From positions 1 through 7,478 of IMG/VR virus record IMGVR_UViG_2548876938_000002: a stretch of 7,478 bases of DNA; one strand, 5' to 3'. This document shows, in pieces, positions 1 to 7,478 of the stretch; the stretch's first letter is position 1, and each line of letters opens with the position of its first letter. A program made the position numbers and the translations under genes. The stretch is from a virus. Its lineage: Duplodnaviria > Heunggongvirae > Uroviricota > Caudoviricetes. The notes under the pieces are model-generated. The model ran no database searches. It was not told the origin of the DNA and saw nothing but the letters and a program-made list of their open reading frames with translations.

Positions 1-720
1 ATAAACGAGCTGGTGATGTCGGTGGCGCTGACGTCATATTCCAGACAGCCACGGCGAATAACGTCTTTTGCCTTGAGCACCATTGCGGTTTTCATTTCCG
101 GCGTGTAGCGGATATCGCGCGCGGCGGGATAGAACGAGCGCACGAGCTGGAACACGCCGACACCGAGGCCGGTGGCATCAATACCGATGTATTCGACGTT
201 GTATTTTTCGGTGAGTTTGCGGATGGATTCCGCCTGGGTGGCAAAGTCCATGCCTTTCCACTGATGGCGCTCAAGTATTCTGAATTTGCCACCGGCCACC
301 ACCGGCGGTGCCAGCACCACGCATCCGGCGCTGTCGCCACGGTGTGACGGGTCGTAACCAATCCATACCGGGCGGGAGCCGAACGGATTGGTGGCAAACG
401 GCGCGTAGTCTTCCCATTCTTCCAGCGTGTCGACCATGCAGCGTTGCAGCTCCTCGAACGGGAACACTGACGCCTTGTCGTCAACAAATTCACACATGAA
501 CAGGTTTTTAAAATCGTCGGCGCTGTTTTCGCGTTTGAGCTGCTCAATGTCGAACAGCGTGCAGCCGCCTTTCAGCGCGTCCTCAATGGTGACAATCTGC
601 CGCCACTGGCCGTCCGCACAGAGAAGACCTCCGGCAAGTGCGTTATGACTGACGTCGATTTCCACGCGTTCAGCGGCGCTGGCGCGTCCCCGGTTAAACA
701 GTTCACCGGACCAGAACGGG
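1..720 (-). pseudogene. Phage terminase large subunit, C-terminal (nuclease-domain) fragment; 5'-truncated, 3' end runs off the window start
   Basis: Hand translation of the minus strand (codons aligned to plus positions 3-5, 6-8 ...) gives an open frame from 821 down to position 1 with no stop. It reads ...WIGYDPSHRGDSAGCVVLAPP...KFRILERHQWKGMDFATQAESIRKLTEKYNVEYIGIDATGLGVGVFQLVRSFYPAARDIRYTPEMKTAMVLKAKDVIRRGCLEYDVS..., which resembles terminase large-subunit nuclease-domain motifs. No ATPase (Walker) region lies upstream; the first ATG is at 779 and the residues before ~720 are antisense to the gpI fragment. The ORF track omitted it because no stop lies in the window. Confidence 0.55.
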
Positions 721-732
721 TATCTGATTGAG

Positions 733-1047
733 GTGAGGGAGTGGTGGCAACTCAATGAGGAGCCGGGGACGTTCCGCATCGTTGTTGGCGTGCTTGAGCA
801 GGGTATTACCGAGGAAATGTATCAGGAGCTGGAGCGCCTCGTTGCTGATGCAAAACCGGCGAGCCGCCATCTGACGGGACTGGCTATCAGTTTAAGTACA
901 ACCGGCAACATTTTTGCCGGTGCGGGATGCTATCACGGTGACGCCCTGACGGTTTATCCCTACACCCCGGAGGCCATTATTGTCGGAGGGGATTATTTCC
1001 CGGCCTCGGCCATTCATTTAATTGATAACCTGAGAGTAAACGCATGA
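733..1047 (+). pseudogene. I: Baseplate assembly protein gpI-like, C-terminal fragment (N-terminally truncated)
   Basis: The 104-aa ORF (VREWWQLNEEPGTFRIVVGVLEQGITEEMYQELERLVADAKPASRHLTGL...) matches my memory of the C-terminal half of P2 gpI. It starts at GTG with no ATG; its frame opens only at 649 and the in-frame residues before ~718 look unrelated. Its stop overlaps the tail-fibre start (ATGA at 1044..1047), as at the I-H junction of P2-like phages. Confidence 0.5.
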
Positions 1048-2222
1048 CAGTGAAATACTACGCCATTCTGACTAATCAGGGCGCAGCACGGCTGGCTAAC
1101 GCGACGATGCTCGGCAGTAAGCTGAATCTGACGCAAATGGCCGTTGGTGATGCGAATGGTGTCTTGCCGACACCAGACCCGGCACAGACAAAACTGATTA
1201 ACCAGAAACGCATCGCGCCGCTGAATCTTCTGAGTGTTGACCCGAACAACCAGAGCCAGATTATTGCGGAGCAAATCATCCCTGAGAACGAGGGCGGATT
1301 CTGGATCCGTGAGATTGGGCTTTATGATGATGAAGGCGTACTCATTGCGGTGGCGAACTGCCCGGAAACGTACAAACCGCAGTTGCAGGAAGGCAGTGGT
1401 CGTACCCAGACTATCCGCATGATTCTGGTTGTCACGAATACCGAAGCCATCACGCTGAAAATCGACCCGTCGGTGGTACTGGCGACCCGTAAATACGTGG
1501 ATGATGAAGTCCTGGAATTAAGGCTGTATGTGGATGACCAGATGAGAAACCACATTGTCGCACAGGATCCTCATACCCAGTATGCGCAGAAACATAATCC
1601 GACATTTACCGGAGAACCAAAAGCGCCGACGCCTGCCGCAGGAAATAACACCACGCGGATTGCGACCACTGCGTTTGTACAGGCCGCTATTACCGCTCTG
1701 ATTAACGGCGCGCCAGCCACGCTGGACACACTGAAAGAAATTGCCGCAGCCATTAACAATGACCCGAAATTCAGTACCACCATTAACAATGCGCTGTCAG
1801 GTAAGCAGCCACTGGATGAGACGCTGACTCATTTGAGTGGAAAGGATGTTGCCGGTCTTCTCGCATACCTTGGTTTGGGAGAAGCGGCTAAAAGGAATGT
1901 AGGGACAGGGGCGAATCAGATACCTGATATGGGTAGCTTCACGCTTTCTGTTTCAGGTACTGGATATCAAAAATTACCATCAGGTTTTATTCTTCAGTGG
2001 GGCTCAATCGGCGCTCCAGGCATTGCACAGGATGTAGTAACCCATTTCCCGATTGCATTTCCAAACAGATGTCTGCGTGTTTTGGTCTCACAAGACTACA
2101 CACCAGATAGCGGGGCTGTTGGTTATATTGCCTGTGCAGGTTTTAGTCCCGACCCGGTTAAATTTATATCCAGAGCCAGTACTCCTGGCCTCGGCGCTTC
2201 ATTTTTAGCGTTAGGCTGTTAA
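1044..2222 (+). CDS. H: Tail fibre protein (P2 gpH-like); constant N-terminal part 1044..~1871 fused to the currently expressed variable C-terminal tip 1884..2222
   Basis: The N-terminus ([20 protein letters not shown]...[18 protein letters not shown]...[23 protein letters not shown]...[23 protein letters not shown]) resembles the conserved N-terminal domain of P2 H. The conserved ...[24 protein letters not shown]...YLGLGE motif sits just before the crossover site, and an unrelated tip follows. Confidence 0.85.
1858..1883. other. Left crossover site of the invertible segment (gix/cix/pix/hix-like 26-bp site): TTCTCGCATACC-TT-GGTTTGGGAGAA
   Basis: Read directly from the sequence. It is a 26-bp imperfect dyad with a central TT at 1870..1871, and its right half-site GGTTTGGGAGAA is identical to the inverted half-site at 3693..3704. 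It lies inside the fibre gene at the YLGLGE codons and resembles the hix/gix pattern TTCT..AAACC..GGTTT..A.AA as I recall it. Confidence 0.8.
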
Positions 2223-2243
2223 TTTAGCTATATGGAGTGAAAA

Positions 2244-2684
2244 ATGAATTACATATATTCCGCGACTACAAACTCTTTCTATCCGCTGGAGATGAAAGAG
2301 GATTACACTCAAGCTGACTCATGGCCAGATGATGCTGTTGAAGTTGATGAGCAAGTGTATATTGAGTTTTCCGGATTACCGCCGAAAGGAAAAATCCGTA
2401 TCGCTGGAGAAAATGGTTTTCCTGCATGGTCTGAAATTCCACCACCAACACATGAGGAACAGATTGCTGCAGCCGAACTGGAAAAGCAGCAACTGATTAA
2501 TCAGGCCAACGATTATATGAACAGTAAACAATGGGCTGGTAAAGCGGCTATTGGTCGTCTGAAAGGTGAGGAACTGGCGCAATATAATTTGTGGCTGGAT
2601 TATCTGGACGCACTGGAGCTGGTCGATACTTCCGGTGCGCCAGATATTGAATGGCCTACGCCTCCGGCAGTTCAGGCCAGATGA
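2244..2684 (+). CDS. Tail fibre assembly protein (Tfa, gpG/U-like) paired with the plus-strand tip
   Basis: 146 aa, with GGAG at 2234..2237 ten nt upstream of the ATG. The C-terminus ...QYNLWLDYLDALELVDTSGAPDIEWPTPP is the typical conserved Tfa C-terminal motif. It lies directly downstream of the fibre gene. Confidence 0.85.
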   Translation: MNYIYSATTNSFYPLEMKEDYTQADSWPDDAVEVDEQVYIEFSGLPPKGKIRIAGENGFPAWSEIPPPTHEEQIAAAELEKQQLINQANDYMNSKQWAGKAAIGRLKGEELAQYNLWLDYLDALELVDTSGAPDIEWPTPPAVQAR

Positions 2685-3249
2685 CATCCGGCGCGGTGCT
2701 GGTATCTGTTGCCGTCACCGCGTCAATGTAATCCAGCACAGCGTTAAGCCGGGTTGTTTCTGCCTGCGTCAGTTTCCGCCCGGCCTGTAATTTCAGCTGA
2801 ATCAGACTAATGGAAGCCATTGCTGCATCAATCAGTGACTGGCGCTGTGCTTCTGCCGCTTCTACTGCGGCACTGTGTTGTGCCTCAGTATCTGTCACCC
2901 ATTTCTCACCATCCCATTTATCATATGGCGTTAACGGTGAAAGCGTGACATAACCGTTTTTGATGGCACCGATATAATCCACTGTAACAGCTGCGCCATT
3001 TTCGATTGAGTAAACAGTCTCATTGCGATGGTCCTCTTCATGGCTCCATCCCTTACCTGTAAATACAGCCACTTTTCCCGGAATGTTTTCGCCAGGGTCA
3101 ATACCAGTGGAACAGGCGGGCATACTTACACCAGTATTAATATATTCATCAGACCAGCCCGTATATTCATACGTTACTGCATCATAATAAAAACAACGCA
3201 TATCACCCGGCACTGTAGCCAGTCCATTTTCATCAAAAACAGGTTTCAT
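2656..3249 (-). CDS. Alternative tail fibre assembly protein (Tfa-prime), paired with the minus-strand tip
   Basis: 197 aa ending ...LNAVLDYIDAVTATDTSTAPDVIWPELPEA (Tfa C-terminal motif), with an N-terminal part resembling E. coli prophage TfaE-type chaperones. Its ATG (3249..3247) overlaps the stop of the upstream tip ORF as TAATG, indicating translational coupling. Confidence 0.85.
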   Translation of the reverse strand: MKPVFDENGLATVPGDMRCFYYDAVTYEYTGWSDEYINTGVSMPACSTGIDPGENIPGKVAVFTGKGWSHEEDHRNETVYSIENGAAVTVDYIGAIKNGYVTLSPLTPYDKWDGEKWVTDTEAQHSAAVEAAEAQRQSLIDAAMASISLIQLKLQAGRKLTQAETTRLNAVLDYIDAVTATDTSTAPDVIWPELPEA

Positions 3250-3705
3250 TATTTAGCCCTCACCAGAAAGTTAAATGCAATGTTACGTGGTCTGACGGCA
3301 ATAAAATTAACACCATCTCCTACTGAGTTACTGGTGTACTGAAATCGAGAGAAACCTGGTTGGTGTGCTGATATTCCATCGTAATCAGCAATCGCATGGC
3401 CGGACCCTTCTGGATAATTACCGCCAAATTGCGATAAAGCTGTTGCTGCCTGCCAGCTTAATAATGCTCGCCCACTGTCCGCCCCTCGCCCATCATCCCA
3501 GATACGAATGAAATCACCGCGGGCTTCAGGTAATACCAGCGAAGGAAACACTTTTGCCAGCACAGGGTAATCAGAGGCAGAAAATTTCGCCCCGTTGAAC
3601 TTCAAAAACACCATACTGGACCAGCTATCGATTACAGTATTTGGCATTGCAGCGGACGGCCAGAAGAACGGAACGCCAATAGCTGGAGCACCTTCTCCCA
3701 AACCA
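3249..3705 (-). CDS. Alternative (currently silent) tail fibre C-terminal tip, promoterless and startless, expressed only after inversion as a fusion to the constant part of the fibre gene
   Basis: The minus-strand frame reads ...IFINVGLGEGAPAIGVPFFWPS...FNGAKFSASDYPVLAKVFPSLVLPEARGDFIRIWDDGRGADSGRALLSWQAATALSQFGG...GSGHA...FNFLVRAK. The GLGE codons lie in the crossover site in the same phase as in the plus-strand fibre gene. The C-terminal part resembles the phage tail-collar fibre domain. The ORF-track Met at 3746 lies outside the invertible segment and is probably artefactual. Confidence 0.75.
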
Positions 3706-3718
3706 ACGTTTATGAAAA
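3693..3718. other. Right crossover site of the invertible segment: TTCTCCCAAACC-AA-CGTTTATGAAAA (inverted relative to the left site)
   Basis: Read directly. It is 26 bp with a central AA at 3705..3706 (TT on the other strand), and its half-site TTCTCCCAAACC is the exact reverse complement of GGTTTGGGAGAA in the left site. It lies ~55 bp upstream of the invertase start. Confidence 0.8.
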
Positions 3719-3773
3719 TGCAGAGATAACGGGCAACTGGCATCATCTCCGGTTTTTATTCAGGGGGATGCTC

Positions 3774-4367
3774 ATGCTTATTGGCTATGTACGCGTGTCA
3801 ACAAATGACCAGAACACGGAATTGCAGCGTAACGCGCTGGAGTGCGCAGGATGCGAGCGGATTTTTGAGGATAAAATCAGCGGCACGAAGTCCGACCGAC
3901 CGGGACTGAAAAAACTGCTCAGAACATTATCAGCATGTGACACTCTGGTAGTCTGGAAGCTGGACAGGCTGGGGCGTAGTATGCGGCATCTGGTCATTCT
4001 GGTTGAGGAACTGCGCGAACGCGGCGTTAATTTTCGCAGTCTGACGGATGCTATTGATACCAGCACGCCGATGGGGCGTTTTTTCTTTCATGTGATGGGG
4101 GCCCTGGCTGAAATGGAGCGAGAACTCATTGTCGAGCGGACTCGGGCCGGGCTGGAAGCGGCCAGAGCCAAAGGTCGTATTGGTGGCAGACGTCCTAAAC
4201 TCTCCACGAGTGAGTGGGAGCAGGCCGGGCGTTTGCTGGCTGCAGGGGAGTCACGTCAACGCGTGGCACTGATTTTTGATATTGGTCTGTCCACGCTCTA
4301 TAAAAAATTTCCCTCATCAGCGACAAAGAATAAATTGTGTCATCCCTTAGCCAACCGGGACAAATAG
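3774..4367 (+). CDS. Site-specific DNA invertase, serine recombinase of the Gin/Cin/Pin/Hin family
   Basis: The product MLIGYVRVSTNDQNTELQRNAL...DTLVVWKLDRLGRSMRHLV...RSLTDAIDTSTPMGRFFFHVMGALAEMERELIVERTRAGLEAARAKGRIGGRRPKL...GLSTLYKKF has the catalytic-serine motif (YVRVS), the resolvase/invertase catalytic domain and a C-terminal helix-turn-helix. It is close to the Pin/Gin sequences as I recall them. I prefer the ATG at 3774 (AGGGGGA at 3762..3768, 5-nt spacer) to the ORF-track start at 3768. Confidence 0.9.
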   Translation: MLIGYVRVSTNDQNTELQRNALECAGCERIFEDKISGTKSDRPGLKKLLRTLSACDTLVVWKLDRLGRSMRHLVILVEELRERGVNFRSLTDAIDTSTPMGRFFFHVMGALAEMERELIVERTRAGLEAARAKGRIGGRRPKLSTSEWEQAGRLLAAGESRQRVALIFDIGLSTLYKKFPSSATKNKLCHPLANRDK

Positions 4368-4426
4368 CCTGACATCTCCGGCACAACTGAAAATATCACT
4401 CACCCATTAACCACGGAGTTAAACGG

Positions 4427-5298
4427 ATGAGTGACTATCATCACGGCGTGCAGGTGCTGGAGATTAACGACGGCACCCGCGTCATTTCCACCGTATCCAC
4501 TGCCATTGTCGGCATGGTCTGCACGGCCAGCGATGCGGATGCGGAAACCTTCCCCCTCAATAAACCGGTGCTGATTACCAATGTGCAGAGCGCAATTGCA
4601 AAGGCCGGTAAAAAAGGCACGCTGGCGGCATCGTTGCAGGCCATCGCCGACCAGTCAAAACCGGTCACCGTTGTTGTGCGTGTGGAAGACGGCACCGGCG
4701 ACGACGAGGAAACGAAACTTGCGCAGACCGTTTCCAATATCATCGGCACCACCGACGAAAACGGTCAGTACACCGGACTGAAAGCCCTGCTGGCGGCAGA
4801 GTCGGTACCGGCATCAGCGCCTCTGTATTCTGGGATTTGCAGGAGTCCGGCACCGATGCTGACCTGCTTAACGAGTCAGGCGTCACTACGCTGATTCGCC
4901 GCGACGGTTTCCGCTTCTGGGGTAACCGTACCTGCTCCGATGACCCGCTGTTCCTCTTTGAAAACTACACCCGCACCGCGCAGGTGCTGGCCGACACGAT
5001 GGCTGAGGCGCACATGTGGGCAGTGGACAAGCCCATCACCGCAACGCTGATTCGCGACATCGTTGACGGCATTAATGCCAAATTCCGTGAGCTGAAAACA
5101 AACGGCTATATCGTGGATGCGACCTGCTGGTTCAGCGAAGAATCCAACGATGCGGAAACCCTCAAGGCCGGAAAACTGTATATCGACTACGACTATACAC
5201 CGGTGACCGAGCAGGAAGTCGCCGCGCTGGAACTGCCTGACCTTGTGGCGCTGGCCGGTAAGGTGGTCGGTTTTTTGTCGCCGAACTCGGTGCAGTGA
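4427..5298 (+). pseudogene. FI: Tail sheath gene (P2 FI-like) remnant: frame change near 4808 and 3' end fused near 5206 to the C-terminal codons of a tail-chaperone (gpE-like) frame
   Basis: Two overlapping ORFs in different frames (4427..4894 frame 2; 4837..5298 frame 1) both read as sheath protein ([54 protein letters not shown]... and ...[40 protein letters not shown]...[11 protein letters not shown]). Together they span ~290 codons, whereas P2-type sheaths are ~390 aa. GGAG at 4415..4418 precedes the ATG. The last ~30 codons ([30 protein letters not shown]) match my memory of the gpE C-terminus and contain the slippery heptamer. Confidence 0.65.
5271..5277 (+). promoter_or_regulatory. 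Programmed -1 frameshift slippery heptamer T_TTT_TTG of the tail-chaperone E/E' module (relic)
   Basis: TTTTTTG sits in X_XXY_YYZ phase relative to the frame ending at 5298 (codons ttt ttg = F L), about 7 codons before that stop. The -1 frame is open from 5241 to 5573 and reads [29 protein letters not shown]... This is the classic position for the tail assembly chaperone frameshift (lambda G/GT, P2 E/E+E'). Confidence 0.5.
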
Positions 5299-5326
5299 CG
5301 TTTCCGAAAAATCTCTCGGTCGATGA

Positions 5327-7177
5327 CCTGATGGCGGATGTGGCAGTGATATTTCACTGCCCGGTTATGAGTTTGCGCAGAAAAACTCAGAATTGCAGGC
5401 TGTGCTCGGTGTGGCAAAAGACTCCGCCGAAATGGCTGCACTACGCAAGCAGGCGCGCCAGCTCGGCGACAATACCGCCGCCTCGGCAGATGATGCAGCC
5501 GGTGCGCAGATTATTATTGCGAAAGCCGGTGGGGATGTTGATGCCATTCAGGCGGCAACGCCGGTCACGCTGAATATGGCGCTGGCGAACCGCCGCACGA
5601 TGGAAGAAAACGCCGCCCTGCTGATGGGGATGAAATCCGCCTTTCAGCTTTCAAACGATAAGGTCGCTCATATCGGGGATGTTCTCTCCATGACGATGAA
5701 CAAAACCGCCGCCGATTTTGACGGCATGAGCGATGCGCTGACCTATGCCGCACCTGTGGCAAAAAATGCCGGTGTCAGCATTGAAGAAACTGCCGCAATG
5801 GTCGGGGTACTGCATGATGCAAAAATTACCGGTTCAATGGCGGGGACGGGAAGCCGTGCCGTGTTAAGCCGCCTGCAGGCACCGACGGGAAAAGCATGGG
5901 ATGCACTCAAAGAGCTTGGTGTGAAAACCTCAGACAGTAAGGGAAACACCCGACCAGTATTTACCATTCTGAAAGAAATGCAGGCCAGTTTTGAGAAAAA
6001 CCGGCTCGGTACTGCCCAGCAGGCTGAATACATGAAAACCATTTTCGGGGAGGAGGCCAGTTCAGCCGCCGCCGTGCTGATGACTGCCGCCTCAACCGGA
6101 AAGCTGGACAAACTGACCGCTGCGTTTAAAGCCTCAGACGGAAAGACCGCAGAGCTGGTAAATATCATGCAGGACAACCTCGGCGGTGACTTTAAGGAGT
6201 TTCAGTCCGCTTATGAGGCGGTGGGGACTGACCTGTTTGACCAGCAGGAAGGCGCACTGCGTAAGCTCACGCAGACGGCCACAAAGTATGTGTTAAAACT
6301 CGACGGCTGGATCCAGAAAAACAAATCACTGGCGTCAACCATCGGCATCATTGCCGGTGGCGCACTGGCGCTTACTGGCATCATCGGTGCCATTGGTCTT
6401 GTAGCCTGGCCGGTTATCACCGGCATCAATGCCATCATCGCGGCAGCAGGCGCAATGGGGGCAATCTTCACGACGGTTGGCAGTGCTGTTATGACCGCCA
6501 TCGGGGCGATTAGCTGGCCGGTTGTGGCTGTGGTGGCCGCCATTGTCGCCGGGGTGTTGCTTATCCGTAAATACTGGGAGCCTGTCAGCGCATTCTTTAG
6601 CGGTGTGGTTGAAGGGCTGAAAACGGCATTTGCGCCGGTGGGAGAACTGTTCACGCCACTGAAACCGGTGTTCGACTGGCTGGGTGAAAAGTTACAGGCC
6701 GCGTGGCAGTGGTTTAAAAACCTGATTGCCCCGGTCAAAGCCACCCAGGACACCCTGAACCGTTGCCGTGACACGGGCGTCATTTTCGGGCAGGCACTGG
6801 CTGACGCGCTGATGTTGCCGCTTAATGCGTTCAACAAACTGCGCAGCGGCATTGACTGGGTACTGGAAAAGCTCGGGGTCATCAACAAAGAGTCAGACAC
6901 ACTTGACCAGACCGCCGCCAGAACTCATGCCGCCACGTATGGCACCGGTGGTTATATTCCGGCGACCAGCTCTTATGCAGGCTATCAGGCTTATCAGCCG
7001 GTCACGGCACCGGCTGGCCGCTCTTATGTGGACCAGAGTAAAAACGAATATCACATCAGTCTGACGGGCGGTACTGCACCGGGGACTCAGCTCGACCGCC
7101 AGTTACAGGATGCGCTCGAAAAATACGAGCGGGATAAACGTGCGCGCGCCCGTGCCAGCATGATGCATGACGGTTAA
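5327..7177 (+). pseudogene. T: Tail tape-measure protein (gpT-like), missing its start and N-terminal region
   Basis: The frame is open from 5327 to the TAA at 7175..7177. The product has tape-measure features: the core motif region ...DALTYAAPVAKNAGVSIEETAAMVGVLHDAKITGSMAGTGSRAVLSRL..., a long Gly/Ala/Ile-rich hydrophobic segment (IGIIAGGALALTGIIGAIGLVAWPVITG...) and a C-terminal domain. No ATG with a ribosome-binding site exists: the ORF track started at TTG 5393 and the first in-frame ATG at 5432 has no Shine-Dalgarno. The upstream E-prime frame is a different frame. Confidence 0.65.
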
Positions 7178-7191
7178 GGAGGTGACTAAAA

Positions 7192-7478
7192 ATGATGCTC
7201 GCGTTAGGTATGTTTGTTTTTATGCGCCAGACGCTGCCACACCAGACCATGCAGCGTGAATCAGATTATCGCTGGCCGTCAAATTCCCGTATCGGTAAAC
7301 GGGATGCCTTTCAGTTTCTCGGTGTGGGTGAGGAAAACATTACGCTTGCCGGTGTGCTTTATCCCGAACTGACCGGCGGCAAGCTGACGATGACCACGCT
7401 CAGGCTGATGGCAGAGGAAGGTCGGGCGTGGCCGTTGCTGGATGGCACCGGCATGATTTACGGCATGTATGTCATCAG
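7192..7478 (+). CDS. U: Tail protein gpU-like (5' part; continues beyond the window end)
   Basis: AAGGAGGTGA at 7176..7185 precedes ATGATG at 7192. Hand translation gives MMLALGMFVFMRQTLPHQTMQRESDYRWPSNSRIGKRDAFQFLGVGEENITLAGVLYPELTGGKLTMTTLRLMAEEGRAWPLLDGTGMIYGMYVI..., open to the window edge, which resembles P2 gpU. It follows T as in the P2 F-E-T-U-D operon. It is not in the ORF track because no stop lies in the window. Confidence 0.8.
   Translation, partial: MMLALGMFVFMRQTLPHQTMQRESDYRWPSNSRIGKRDAFQFLGVGEENITLAGVLYPELTGGKLTMTTLRLMAEEGRAWPLLDGTGMIYGMYVI

Follow-up and report, generated by a model that had tools for sequence, protein, structure and literature searches.

A fibre switch inside a P2-like prophage remnant

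In the G segment of phage Mu, the small serine invertase Gin acts on a pair of 26-bp sites that lie in inverted orientation and match in their 2-bp cores, and the inverted DNA encodes, on opposite strands, a pair of alternative fibre C-termini and the chaperone that belongs to each. Phase variation of the tail fibre by inversion has also been demonstrated by sequencing for P2-like prophages of enteropathogenic Escherichia coli E2348/69 (PMC4272514), and the annotation of the P2-like phage pro483 lists a DNA invertase together with two fibre assembly genes. Invertases of this type are likewise described from cryptic prophages of E. coli K-12, where PinQ of prophage Qin inverts the P segment of e14 to give StfE2, which blocks T2 adsorption, and both a benefit for the host and action in trans are demonstrated (PMC12529663). 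Here we describe a contig of 7,478 bp (IMG/VR record IMGVR_UViG_2548876938_000002, hereafter the window) in which such an invertible fibre cassette lies between broken structural genes. With a probability of roughly 0.65, we read it as a recently deleted P2-like prophage whose switch is intact for non-selective reasons, with no selection on the invertase or fibre genes needed.

The switch resembles that of Mu in its small serine invertase, which is ~80 % identical to Gin, in its two inverted 26-bp sites with matching cores, in the right site lying 55–56 bp upstream of the invertase start as in the gixR-gin spacing, and in the two chaperone-linked fibre tips on opposite strands. Unlike in Mu, it is located inside a P2-type tail cluster between gpI and the sheath gene, its segment measures 1.8 kb instead of 3 kb, and its cores read TT/AA. 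It shares phage type and switch position with the fibre loci of E2348/69 and pro483 but has lost 11.4 kb, so that particles cannot be formed. As in e14/PinE and PinQ/StfE2, the invertase and fibre cassette persists in a defective prophage, and DNA identity to e14 reaches 87 % over pinE and its crossover site and 95 % over part of the tfa genes; the tips and the parent phage differ, however, and sister remnants of the window lose the cassette. In contrast to PinQ/StfE2, expression, trans action and conservation are no more than hypothetical for this locus. As P2-like prophages with such invertible switches are already known, the retained switch itself is no novelty.

The window is a complete draft contig (AIAO01000156.1, assembly GCA_000446325.2), and both of its ends are assembly breaks; the cuts in the terminase gene on the left and in gpU on the right are thus assembly ends and no lesions. 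Its DNA is 97–100 % identical to E. coli P2-like prophages, and the stretches of 100 % identity suggest E. coli as the host species. The genes follow the P2 order (P ... I H tfa ... FI FII E T U), with which their Pfam and NCBIfam assignments agree. Two intact prophages are co-linear with them: L001 (strain GPEC1031, annotated) and L008 (in GCA_036294505.1), in which every late gene is full-length and which served as reference. P2-family phages match the window from ~4335–4347 to 7478 at 97 % with internal breaks at the deletion junctions J2–J4 introduced below, and matches to pro483 cover 74 % of it. The contig belongs with the P2-like phages (Peduovirus) by its gene order and because its structural genes are nearly identical to those of P2 type. 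The morphogenetic gene set is incomplete, with O through J and FII gone, E largely missing and P, I, FI and T each lacking a part, and the contig would accordingly represent an E. coli P2-like prophage remnant unable to make particles.

Comparison with L008 shows how little the retained DNA has changed. Positions 723–4805, comprising the whole cassette and its flanks, show no difference in 4083 bp. None was found in the 185 bp of comparable terminase sequence or in the gpE piece either, and the 2115 bp from T to U contain a single one at position 7187, between the two genes. We propose that the prophage recently lost 11.4 kb through four co-linear deletions with 1–2 nt of junction homology, and that the surviving middle is a host-range switch in which a Gin/Pin-type invertase would flip a 1.8-kb segment and join the constant part of H to either tip with its own chaperone. 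The interior of the cassette would have survived since its DNA, near-identical to that of a living phage, has had no time for decay by point mutation. On the left, the 9.5-kb deletion stops, presumably for mechanistic reasons, at a break point that at least six independent deletions share and that coincides with the cassette boundary; on the right, the three small deletions cluster downstream between sheath and tape measure, the nearest starting 440 bp past the invertase stop, and would thus have spared the cassette.

The preliminary description of this locus had listed the fibre gene, both chaperones, the silent tip, both crossover sites and the invertase as intact, and all of them indeed are open and identical to L008 (Table 1). 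The invertase matches two structures of Mu Gin, 3uj3 and 4m6f, over residues 1–182 (E = 6.5e-93) and contains the motif YVRVSTNDQ; together with the N-terminal catalytic domain with Ser9 and the C-terminal helix-turn-helix, this agrees with the small serine recombinases of the Din family. The two sites also agree with this family, as their central dinucleotides TT and AA are identical once inverted. Inversion at the core dinucleotides in silico yields an open alternative fibre of 427 aa, composed of the constant part of H and the silent tip and followed by tfa'. Among complete E. coli genomes, 55 contain the predicted inverted junction and 52 the native form, which indicates that the switch operates between two functional gene configurations in relatives. 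A pattern built from the two sites found no further crossover site within three mismatches in the window (0.01 expected by chance). The 5' coding region of the invertase gene aligns with that of Mu gin, where the Fis-dependent recombinational enhancer lies. The exact H protein occurs in 43 contig blocks and, among the matches listed, all places are full P2-like prophages. At the right boundary of the cassette, the alignment of prophage L015 (strain E2) to L008 begins at invertase nt 562.

Expression of the fibre in the remnant is doubtful. In P2 the late promoter PV lies upstream of V, and the native late promoter of the fibre operon was probably lost with the deleted 9.5 kb; no sigma-70-like site was found upstream of H. 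The region upstream of the invertase is retained. Cross-complementation within the Din family is established, and action of the invertase in trans on other Din-type segments would be biochemically plausible.

Table 1. Features of the window; nt, gene nucleotide.
Feature	Position	Strand	Description
Terminase gpP, internal fragment	1..722	−	~gene nt 877–1598; 100 % identical to E. coli 'terminase ATPase subunit' genes
Junction J1	721..722		TA shared; gpI nt 286 follows directly on P nt 185 (numbered from where the L008 locus begins)
gpI, 3' part (baseplate/fibre adaptor)	724..1047	+	last 107 codons and stop; TIGR01634 tail_P2_I; identical to L008
Tail fibre gene H	1044..2222	+	392 aa; constant part to ~1870, expressed variable tip 1872–2222; Pfam Phage_tail_fib, Gp53-like_C
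Left 26-bp crossover site	1858..1883	+	TTCTCGCATACC TT GGTTTGGGAGAA; inside H; inverted repeat
Invertible segment	1871..3705		1835 bp between the two core dinucleotides
tfa, chaperone of expressed tip	2244..2684	+	146 aa; Pfam Caudo_TAP; identical to L008
tfa', alternative chaperone	2656..3249	−	197 aa; Pfam Caudo_TAP_N, Caudo_TAP; identical to L008
Silent alternative fibre tip	3249..3692	−	147 codons and stop; no start codon of its own; promoterless
Right 26-bp crossover site	3693..3718	+	TTCTCCCAAACC AA CGTTTATGAAAA; 56 bp upstream of invertase start
Din-family serine DNA invertase	3774..4367	+	197 aa; catalytic Ser9; Pfam Resolvase, HTH_7
Right mosaic boundary of cassette	4335..4347		matches of canonical P2-type phages to the window begin here
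Sheath FI, nt 1–381	4427..4807	+	runs to J2
Junction J2	4806..4807		shared TA; 328 bp gone inside FI, frame shifted
Sheath FI, nt 710–1106	4808..5204	+	differs from L008 at 3 positions, each synonymous in the sheath frame
Junction J3	5204		shared T; 854 bp gone: FI 3' end, whole tube gene FII, gpE 5' part
Tail chaperone E/E' fragment	5205..5359	+	E nt 183 to E' nt 65
Junction J4	5358..5359		shared TG; 713 bp gone: E' 3' end and first 628 nt of tape measure
Tape-measure T, 3' three quarters	5360..7177	+	from nt 631; TIGR01760; 0 differences from L008 within the gene
Tail gene U, 5' part	7192..7478	+	Pfam Phage_P2_GpU; aligns to L008 through the last base

Four deletions in the structural genes

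Decay of prophages by deletion is well known, and microhomology-dependent illegitimate recombination and end joining operate in E. coli. The lesions of the window fit this picture. Relative to L008, four co-linear deletions of 9494, 328, 854 and 713 bp (junctions J1–J4) remove head, lysis, baseplate and tail functions, and 2, 2, 1 and 2 nt, respectively, are shared at the junctions. Co-linear deletions with 1–8 nt of junction homology, several of them per prophage, are what known illegitimate recombination in E. coli leaves behind, and the same decay pattern is seen in finished genomes (L015) and in many contigs. What sets the locus and its relatives apart from random illegitimate recombination is a single deletion end, gpI nt 286, which six deletion classes reuse to the nucleotide.

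The largest deletion, J1, takes out O through J along with the 5' parts of P and I. The terminase fragment, bounded by the contig end on its left and J1 on its right, maps to L022 1402–2123 and to L008 1–185, and gene callers start the gpI remnant at GTG 733 or ATG 817. The frameshift noted in the sheath gene is the effect of J2 alone and not a separate lesion. Mapping against L008 bore out the damaged genes named in the preliminary description (terminase, gpI, sheath, tube, chaperone and tape measure). Its count of at least four independent lesions holds as far as four deletions are present; they need not be independent, and three of the four fall inside 2.4 kb of ancestral sequence. CCGG was observed within 5 bp of four of the eight deletion ends (L008 13764, 14091, 14489 and 16210; post-hoc P = 0.017), an association that is partly due to the ACCGG shared at J2 and thus to junction homology.

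Since the window is a 7.5-kb draft contig with both ends inside phage genes, some or all of the lesions might be assembly artefacts, for example chimeric joins among co-resident P2-like prophages. For J1 and J2 this was rejected on the strength of independent sequencing. A contig in Logan, assembled from run SRR21142975 (L017, 4216 bp, obtained by a different assembler and reached via the exact invertase protein), is 100 % identical to window 642–4857 and spans the two junctions, which are therefore real. J1 furthermore recurs in metagenome contigs (L025). J3 and J4, whose single source is the window contig, are probable. The open reading frames across J2 and J3 and the truncated tape-measure frame below J4 had no match in any other contig among 153 billion gene positions, and J2–J4 were found in 0 of 1722 matching complete genomes, which would be expected of artificial joins; on the other hand, a k-mer assembler cannot bridge junctions sharing only 1–2 nt without spanning reads, and P2 remnants with multiple deletions do exist in finished genomes such as that of strain E2 (L015). 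Taken over all four junctions, we regard an assembly artefact as very improbable.

Age of the remnant and selection on the cassette

The preliminary description had suggested that the intact frames of the cassette may reflect purifying selection on the invertase or fibre module, alternatively chance in a young remnant. Because the cassette shows zero substitutions, synonymous or not, its intact frames are uninformative on purifying selection. The proposed dN/dS check meets the same obstacle on the remnant branch, where no changes are available, yet a ratio of nonsynonymous to synonymous polymorphism (pN/pS) could be obtained from 5–11 related loci. It amounts to 0.08 for the invertase, 0.07 for T and 0.01–0.03 for the sheath; the invertase thus equals the tail genes and appears not to be special, and these values would reflect life as a functional phage.

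Related remnants were found by look-up of the truncated gpI reading frame and its relatives, a gpI-seeded survey and no census. Each of these P2-like remnants carries 2–5 co-linear deletions. L022 and L026 retain an intact cassette. L019 has lost it through a join of H nt 53 to T nt 2285, and L020, L023 and L028 through a join of H nt 258 to U nt 453; in L135 the cassette is truncated after H. In L021 and L024 the invertase is split into 61 and 128 aa while sheath, tube and T are full-length, and L030 contains many split genes, H and the invertase among them. Loss or inactivation of the module in relatives, which the preliminary description had named as the outcome that would speak against selection, is thus found in kind (L019, L020, L021 and L135), albeit in a small sample. 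The split in L021 (13648–14281; also in L024) stems from a small insertion or duplication and leaves gpE and the 815-aa tape measure intact, a pattern that is the reverse of the window.

Preservation of the cassette by host selection, be it for a trans-acting invertase, for an adsorption-blocking fibre protein in the manner of PinQ/StfE2 or as a recombination donor, has a precedent in the block of T2 adsorption (PMC12529663). Cassette sequences occur in ~3665 of 5426 complete E. coli genomes, compared with ~1700 for the P2 tail genes, and the matches include e14- and CPS-53-type remnants; this wide distribution is, however, confounded by exchange among unrelated phage families. While three evaluable sister remnant classes retain the cassette, four others have lost it or broken the invertase. 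The chance that all four deletions miss the 3.3-kb module depends on the model and carries no correction for post-hoc recognition of the pattern: it is 0.25–0.34 for a 33-kb prophage, 0.10–0.31 if junction positions are placed in retained DNA only, and 0.0125 in the narrowest model, in which the deletions are confined to the span of the contig itself and which would favour selection. With no selective signal in an unsubstituted cassette, an invertase pN/pS not below that of the tail genes and a late promoter that probably lay in the deleted 9.5 kb, we consider host selection distinctly unlikely, and the suggested purifying selection on the module finds no support. Retention or constraint beyond the neutral expectation, as in the domesticated PinQ/StfE2-type module, was not found. 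Chance in a young remnant comes closer to the data as far as the young DNA is concerned; the end of the largest deletion, in turn, is not random.

Several observations weigh against a simple history of recent deletion without selection. The sheath piece of 392 bp between J2 and J3 (4812–5203) holds three of the four differences from L008 (Fisher P = 7e-4), an excess that such a history does not predict. They are located at 4914, 4938 and 5022, and two of them are absent from 11 loci. Furthermore, the junction of terminase gene P with gpI is found again in a background that diverges by 3 %, where the first differences lie 13 nt away on its left and 29 nt away on its right, whereby it may be old rather than young or may have arisen twice. 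J3 and J4 were seen in one draft contig only, the narrowest placement model gives a low chance of sparing the module, and the invertase could still play a role in trans, as the analysis covered one contig of the genome.

Part of this evidence would also suit an old remnant in which homologous recombination with circulating L008-like phages replaced each block between junctions on its own, exchange ending at the junctions because the homology does not reach beyond them. Besides the two backgrounds of the P-gpI junction, an identical junction of lysB with gpI is found in two backgrounds 9 % apart, the patterns of single-nucleotide polymorphisms in the terminase are reticulate among loci, and the shortest block is the one that differs from L008, as if short blocks had been converted least. 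Such a history needs four or five separate conversions from one donor type, though, and any exchange reaching across two blocks would have restored the DNA missing between them. As for the short block, no 100 % match to the sheath piece was found in 1664 E. coli genomes, where two of its variants are private, and a slightly different intact ancestor fits these synonymous changes as well. The piece may either be a small recombination patch in the ancestor or belong to blocks with separate histories; a mutation shower or sequencing errors were rejected, as all three differences are synonymous. Overall we judge an old, repeatedly overwritten remnant to be unlikely and prefer the recently deleted prophage, for which no selection on the switch is needed.

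These results keep the locus out of the category of domesticated prophages, and host selection preserving a phage switch is not shown by the data.

The related P2-like prophages also carry varied cargo at known variable spots (L007/L009 5899–7425; L021/L024/L133; L027; L025 5238–7715; L019 6644–8851). We observed a 508-aa AAA/TIR-like gene between S and V, pairs of a reverse transcriptase and an AAA ATPase, a retron Ec48-type set, a SacI-like restriction-modification pair and a 735-aa AAA_13 protein, all of them putative anti-phage defence cargo.

A recurrent break point at gpI nt 286

The right end of J1 is also the end of other deletions. In junctions drawn from the window, L019–L028 and L133, six independent deletion classes, each with a different left partner, enter gpI at one nucleotide, directly before TCTGATTGAGG (window 721–723; L008 9677–9679): terminase nt 185, capsid N nt 607, lysA nt 185, lysB nt 110, V nt 447 and J nt 27. 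The site reads ...GGCTA|TCTGATTGAGG, and at the junctions TA is either shared or contributed by the partner. Besides these, the survey turned up just three deletion ends in the 5' half of gpI, at nt 275 (the end of an IS21 copy), at nt 240 (a fusion with gpO) and at ~nt 110. Six of the nine deletion classes ending in this half thus do so at nt 286 (P < 1e-6 under uniform ends). A search based on open reading frames could narrow the ends only to a ~24-nt window.

The same nucleotide is a sharp mosaic boundary between the gpI of invertase-type phages and that of canonical P2-type phages, which are ~96 % identical up to ...GGCTATCT and ~65–70 % identical after it. Canonical-type prophages in complete genomes accordingly match the V-to-D reference region in two pieces, with ~72 % of it covered. 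As the right end of J1 is at once the reused nucleotide and the mosaic boundary, the left edge of the retained cassette looks set by the recurrent break point.

Selection cannot yield nucleotide-precise ends, and we infer from this either a recurrent DNA end at gpI nt 286 or a joining reaction that prefers this site. Tentatively, and with less than even confidence, we propose that in E. coli P2-like phages DNA is repeatedly broken and rejoined in a site-specific manner at gpI nt 286, exactly on the left border of the cassette, and that homologies of 2–4 nt join the ends. The ends might come from intermediates of homologous exchange that stall at the boundary of heterology, or a rival phage might generate them with a homing-type endonuclease. 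In the canonical P2-type prophage L131, an HNH endonuclease gene and a small reading frame occupy the position of the invertase (5675–7008), and this HNH endonuclease is a candidate source of site-specific breaks.

Other explanations for the site did not hold. Hairpins at the gpI and P sites are not significant (z −1.7 at best), and a pseudo-origin of the P2 A nickase was dismissed for want of a convincing match of the gpI site inside gene A. As judged by eye, the site fits the half-site consensus of the invertase poorly, with a core TA instead of TT/AA, and only Chi-like heptamers with two mismatches in the wrong orientation are present. An apparent second hot spot at 'GITEEMY' (P0076) turned out to be a mosaic gpI with no deletion, and the IS21 end at gpI nt 275 (P0046) reflects a different mechanism.

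A 30-mer across J1 found nothing in one-genome-per-species contigs. With a pattern excluding the intact upstream base, all hits in GTDB representatives, JGI metagenomes and IMG/VR were point variants. Among 80 IMG/VR loci examined of 93 matching stretches, none has gpI deleted at the site, and gpI is intact there.

On the partner side, P and N have 9 of 14 nt in common with the gpI flank by eye. Terminase nt 185 (window 720–722) is itself used more than once: in L021 and L024 a 615-bp in-frame deletion internal to the terminase has its right end there (~7173–7180 in L021, with GTAG shared); no mosaic boundary was seen at P nt 185. Away from the gpI site, 3 of 10 junctions share TA, compared with 3 % of the dinucleotides in the region, and the joining reaction may have a preference for TA. 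Near the break point, an IS21 copy abuts gpI nt 275 at a distance of 11 nt (L137 1531–4036, L138 1–133). In L137 it adjoins plasmid-type genes (PsiA), and a fragment of the fibre cassette may have moved onto a plasmid.

If gpI nt 286 is a break-and-join site of this kind, the boundary of a phage module would be set by a targeted mutational mechanism, beyond random illegitimate recombination filtered by selection, and the same mechanism would shape the decay of prophages. In remnants, whose proteins are not expected to be under selection for function, deletion ends accumulate at one nucleotide that is also the mosaic boundary of the cassette. This bears on the old question of whether module boundaries arise from targeted recombination or from random joins followed by selection.

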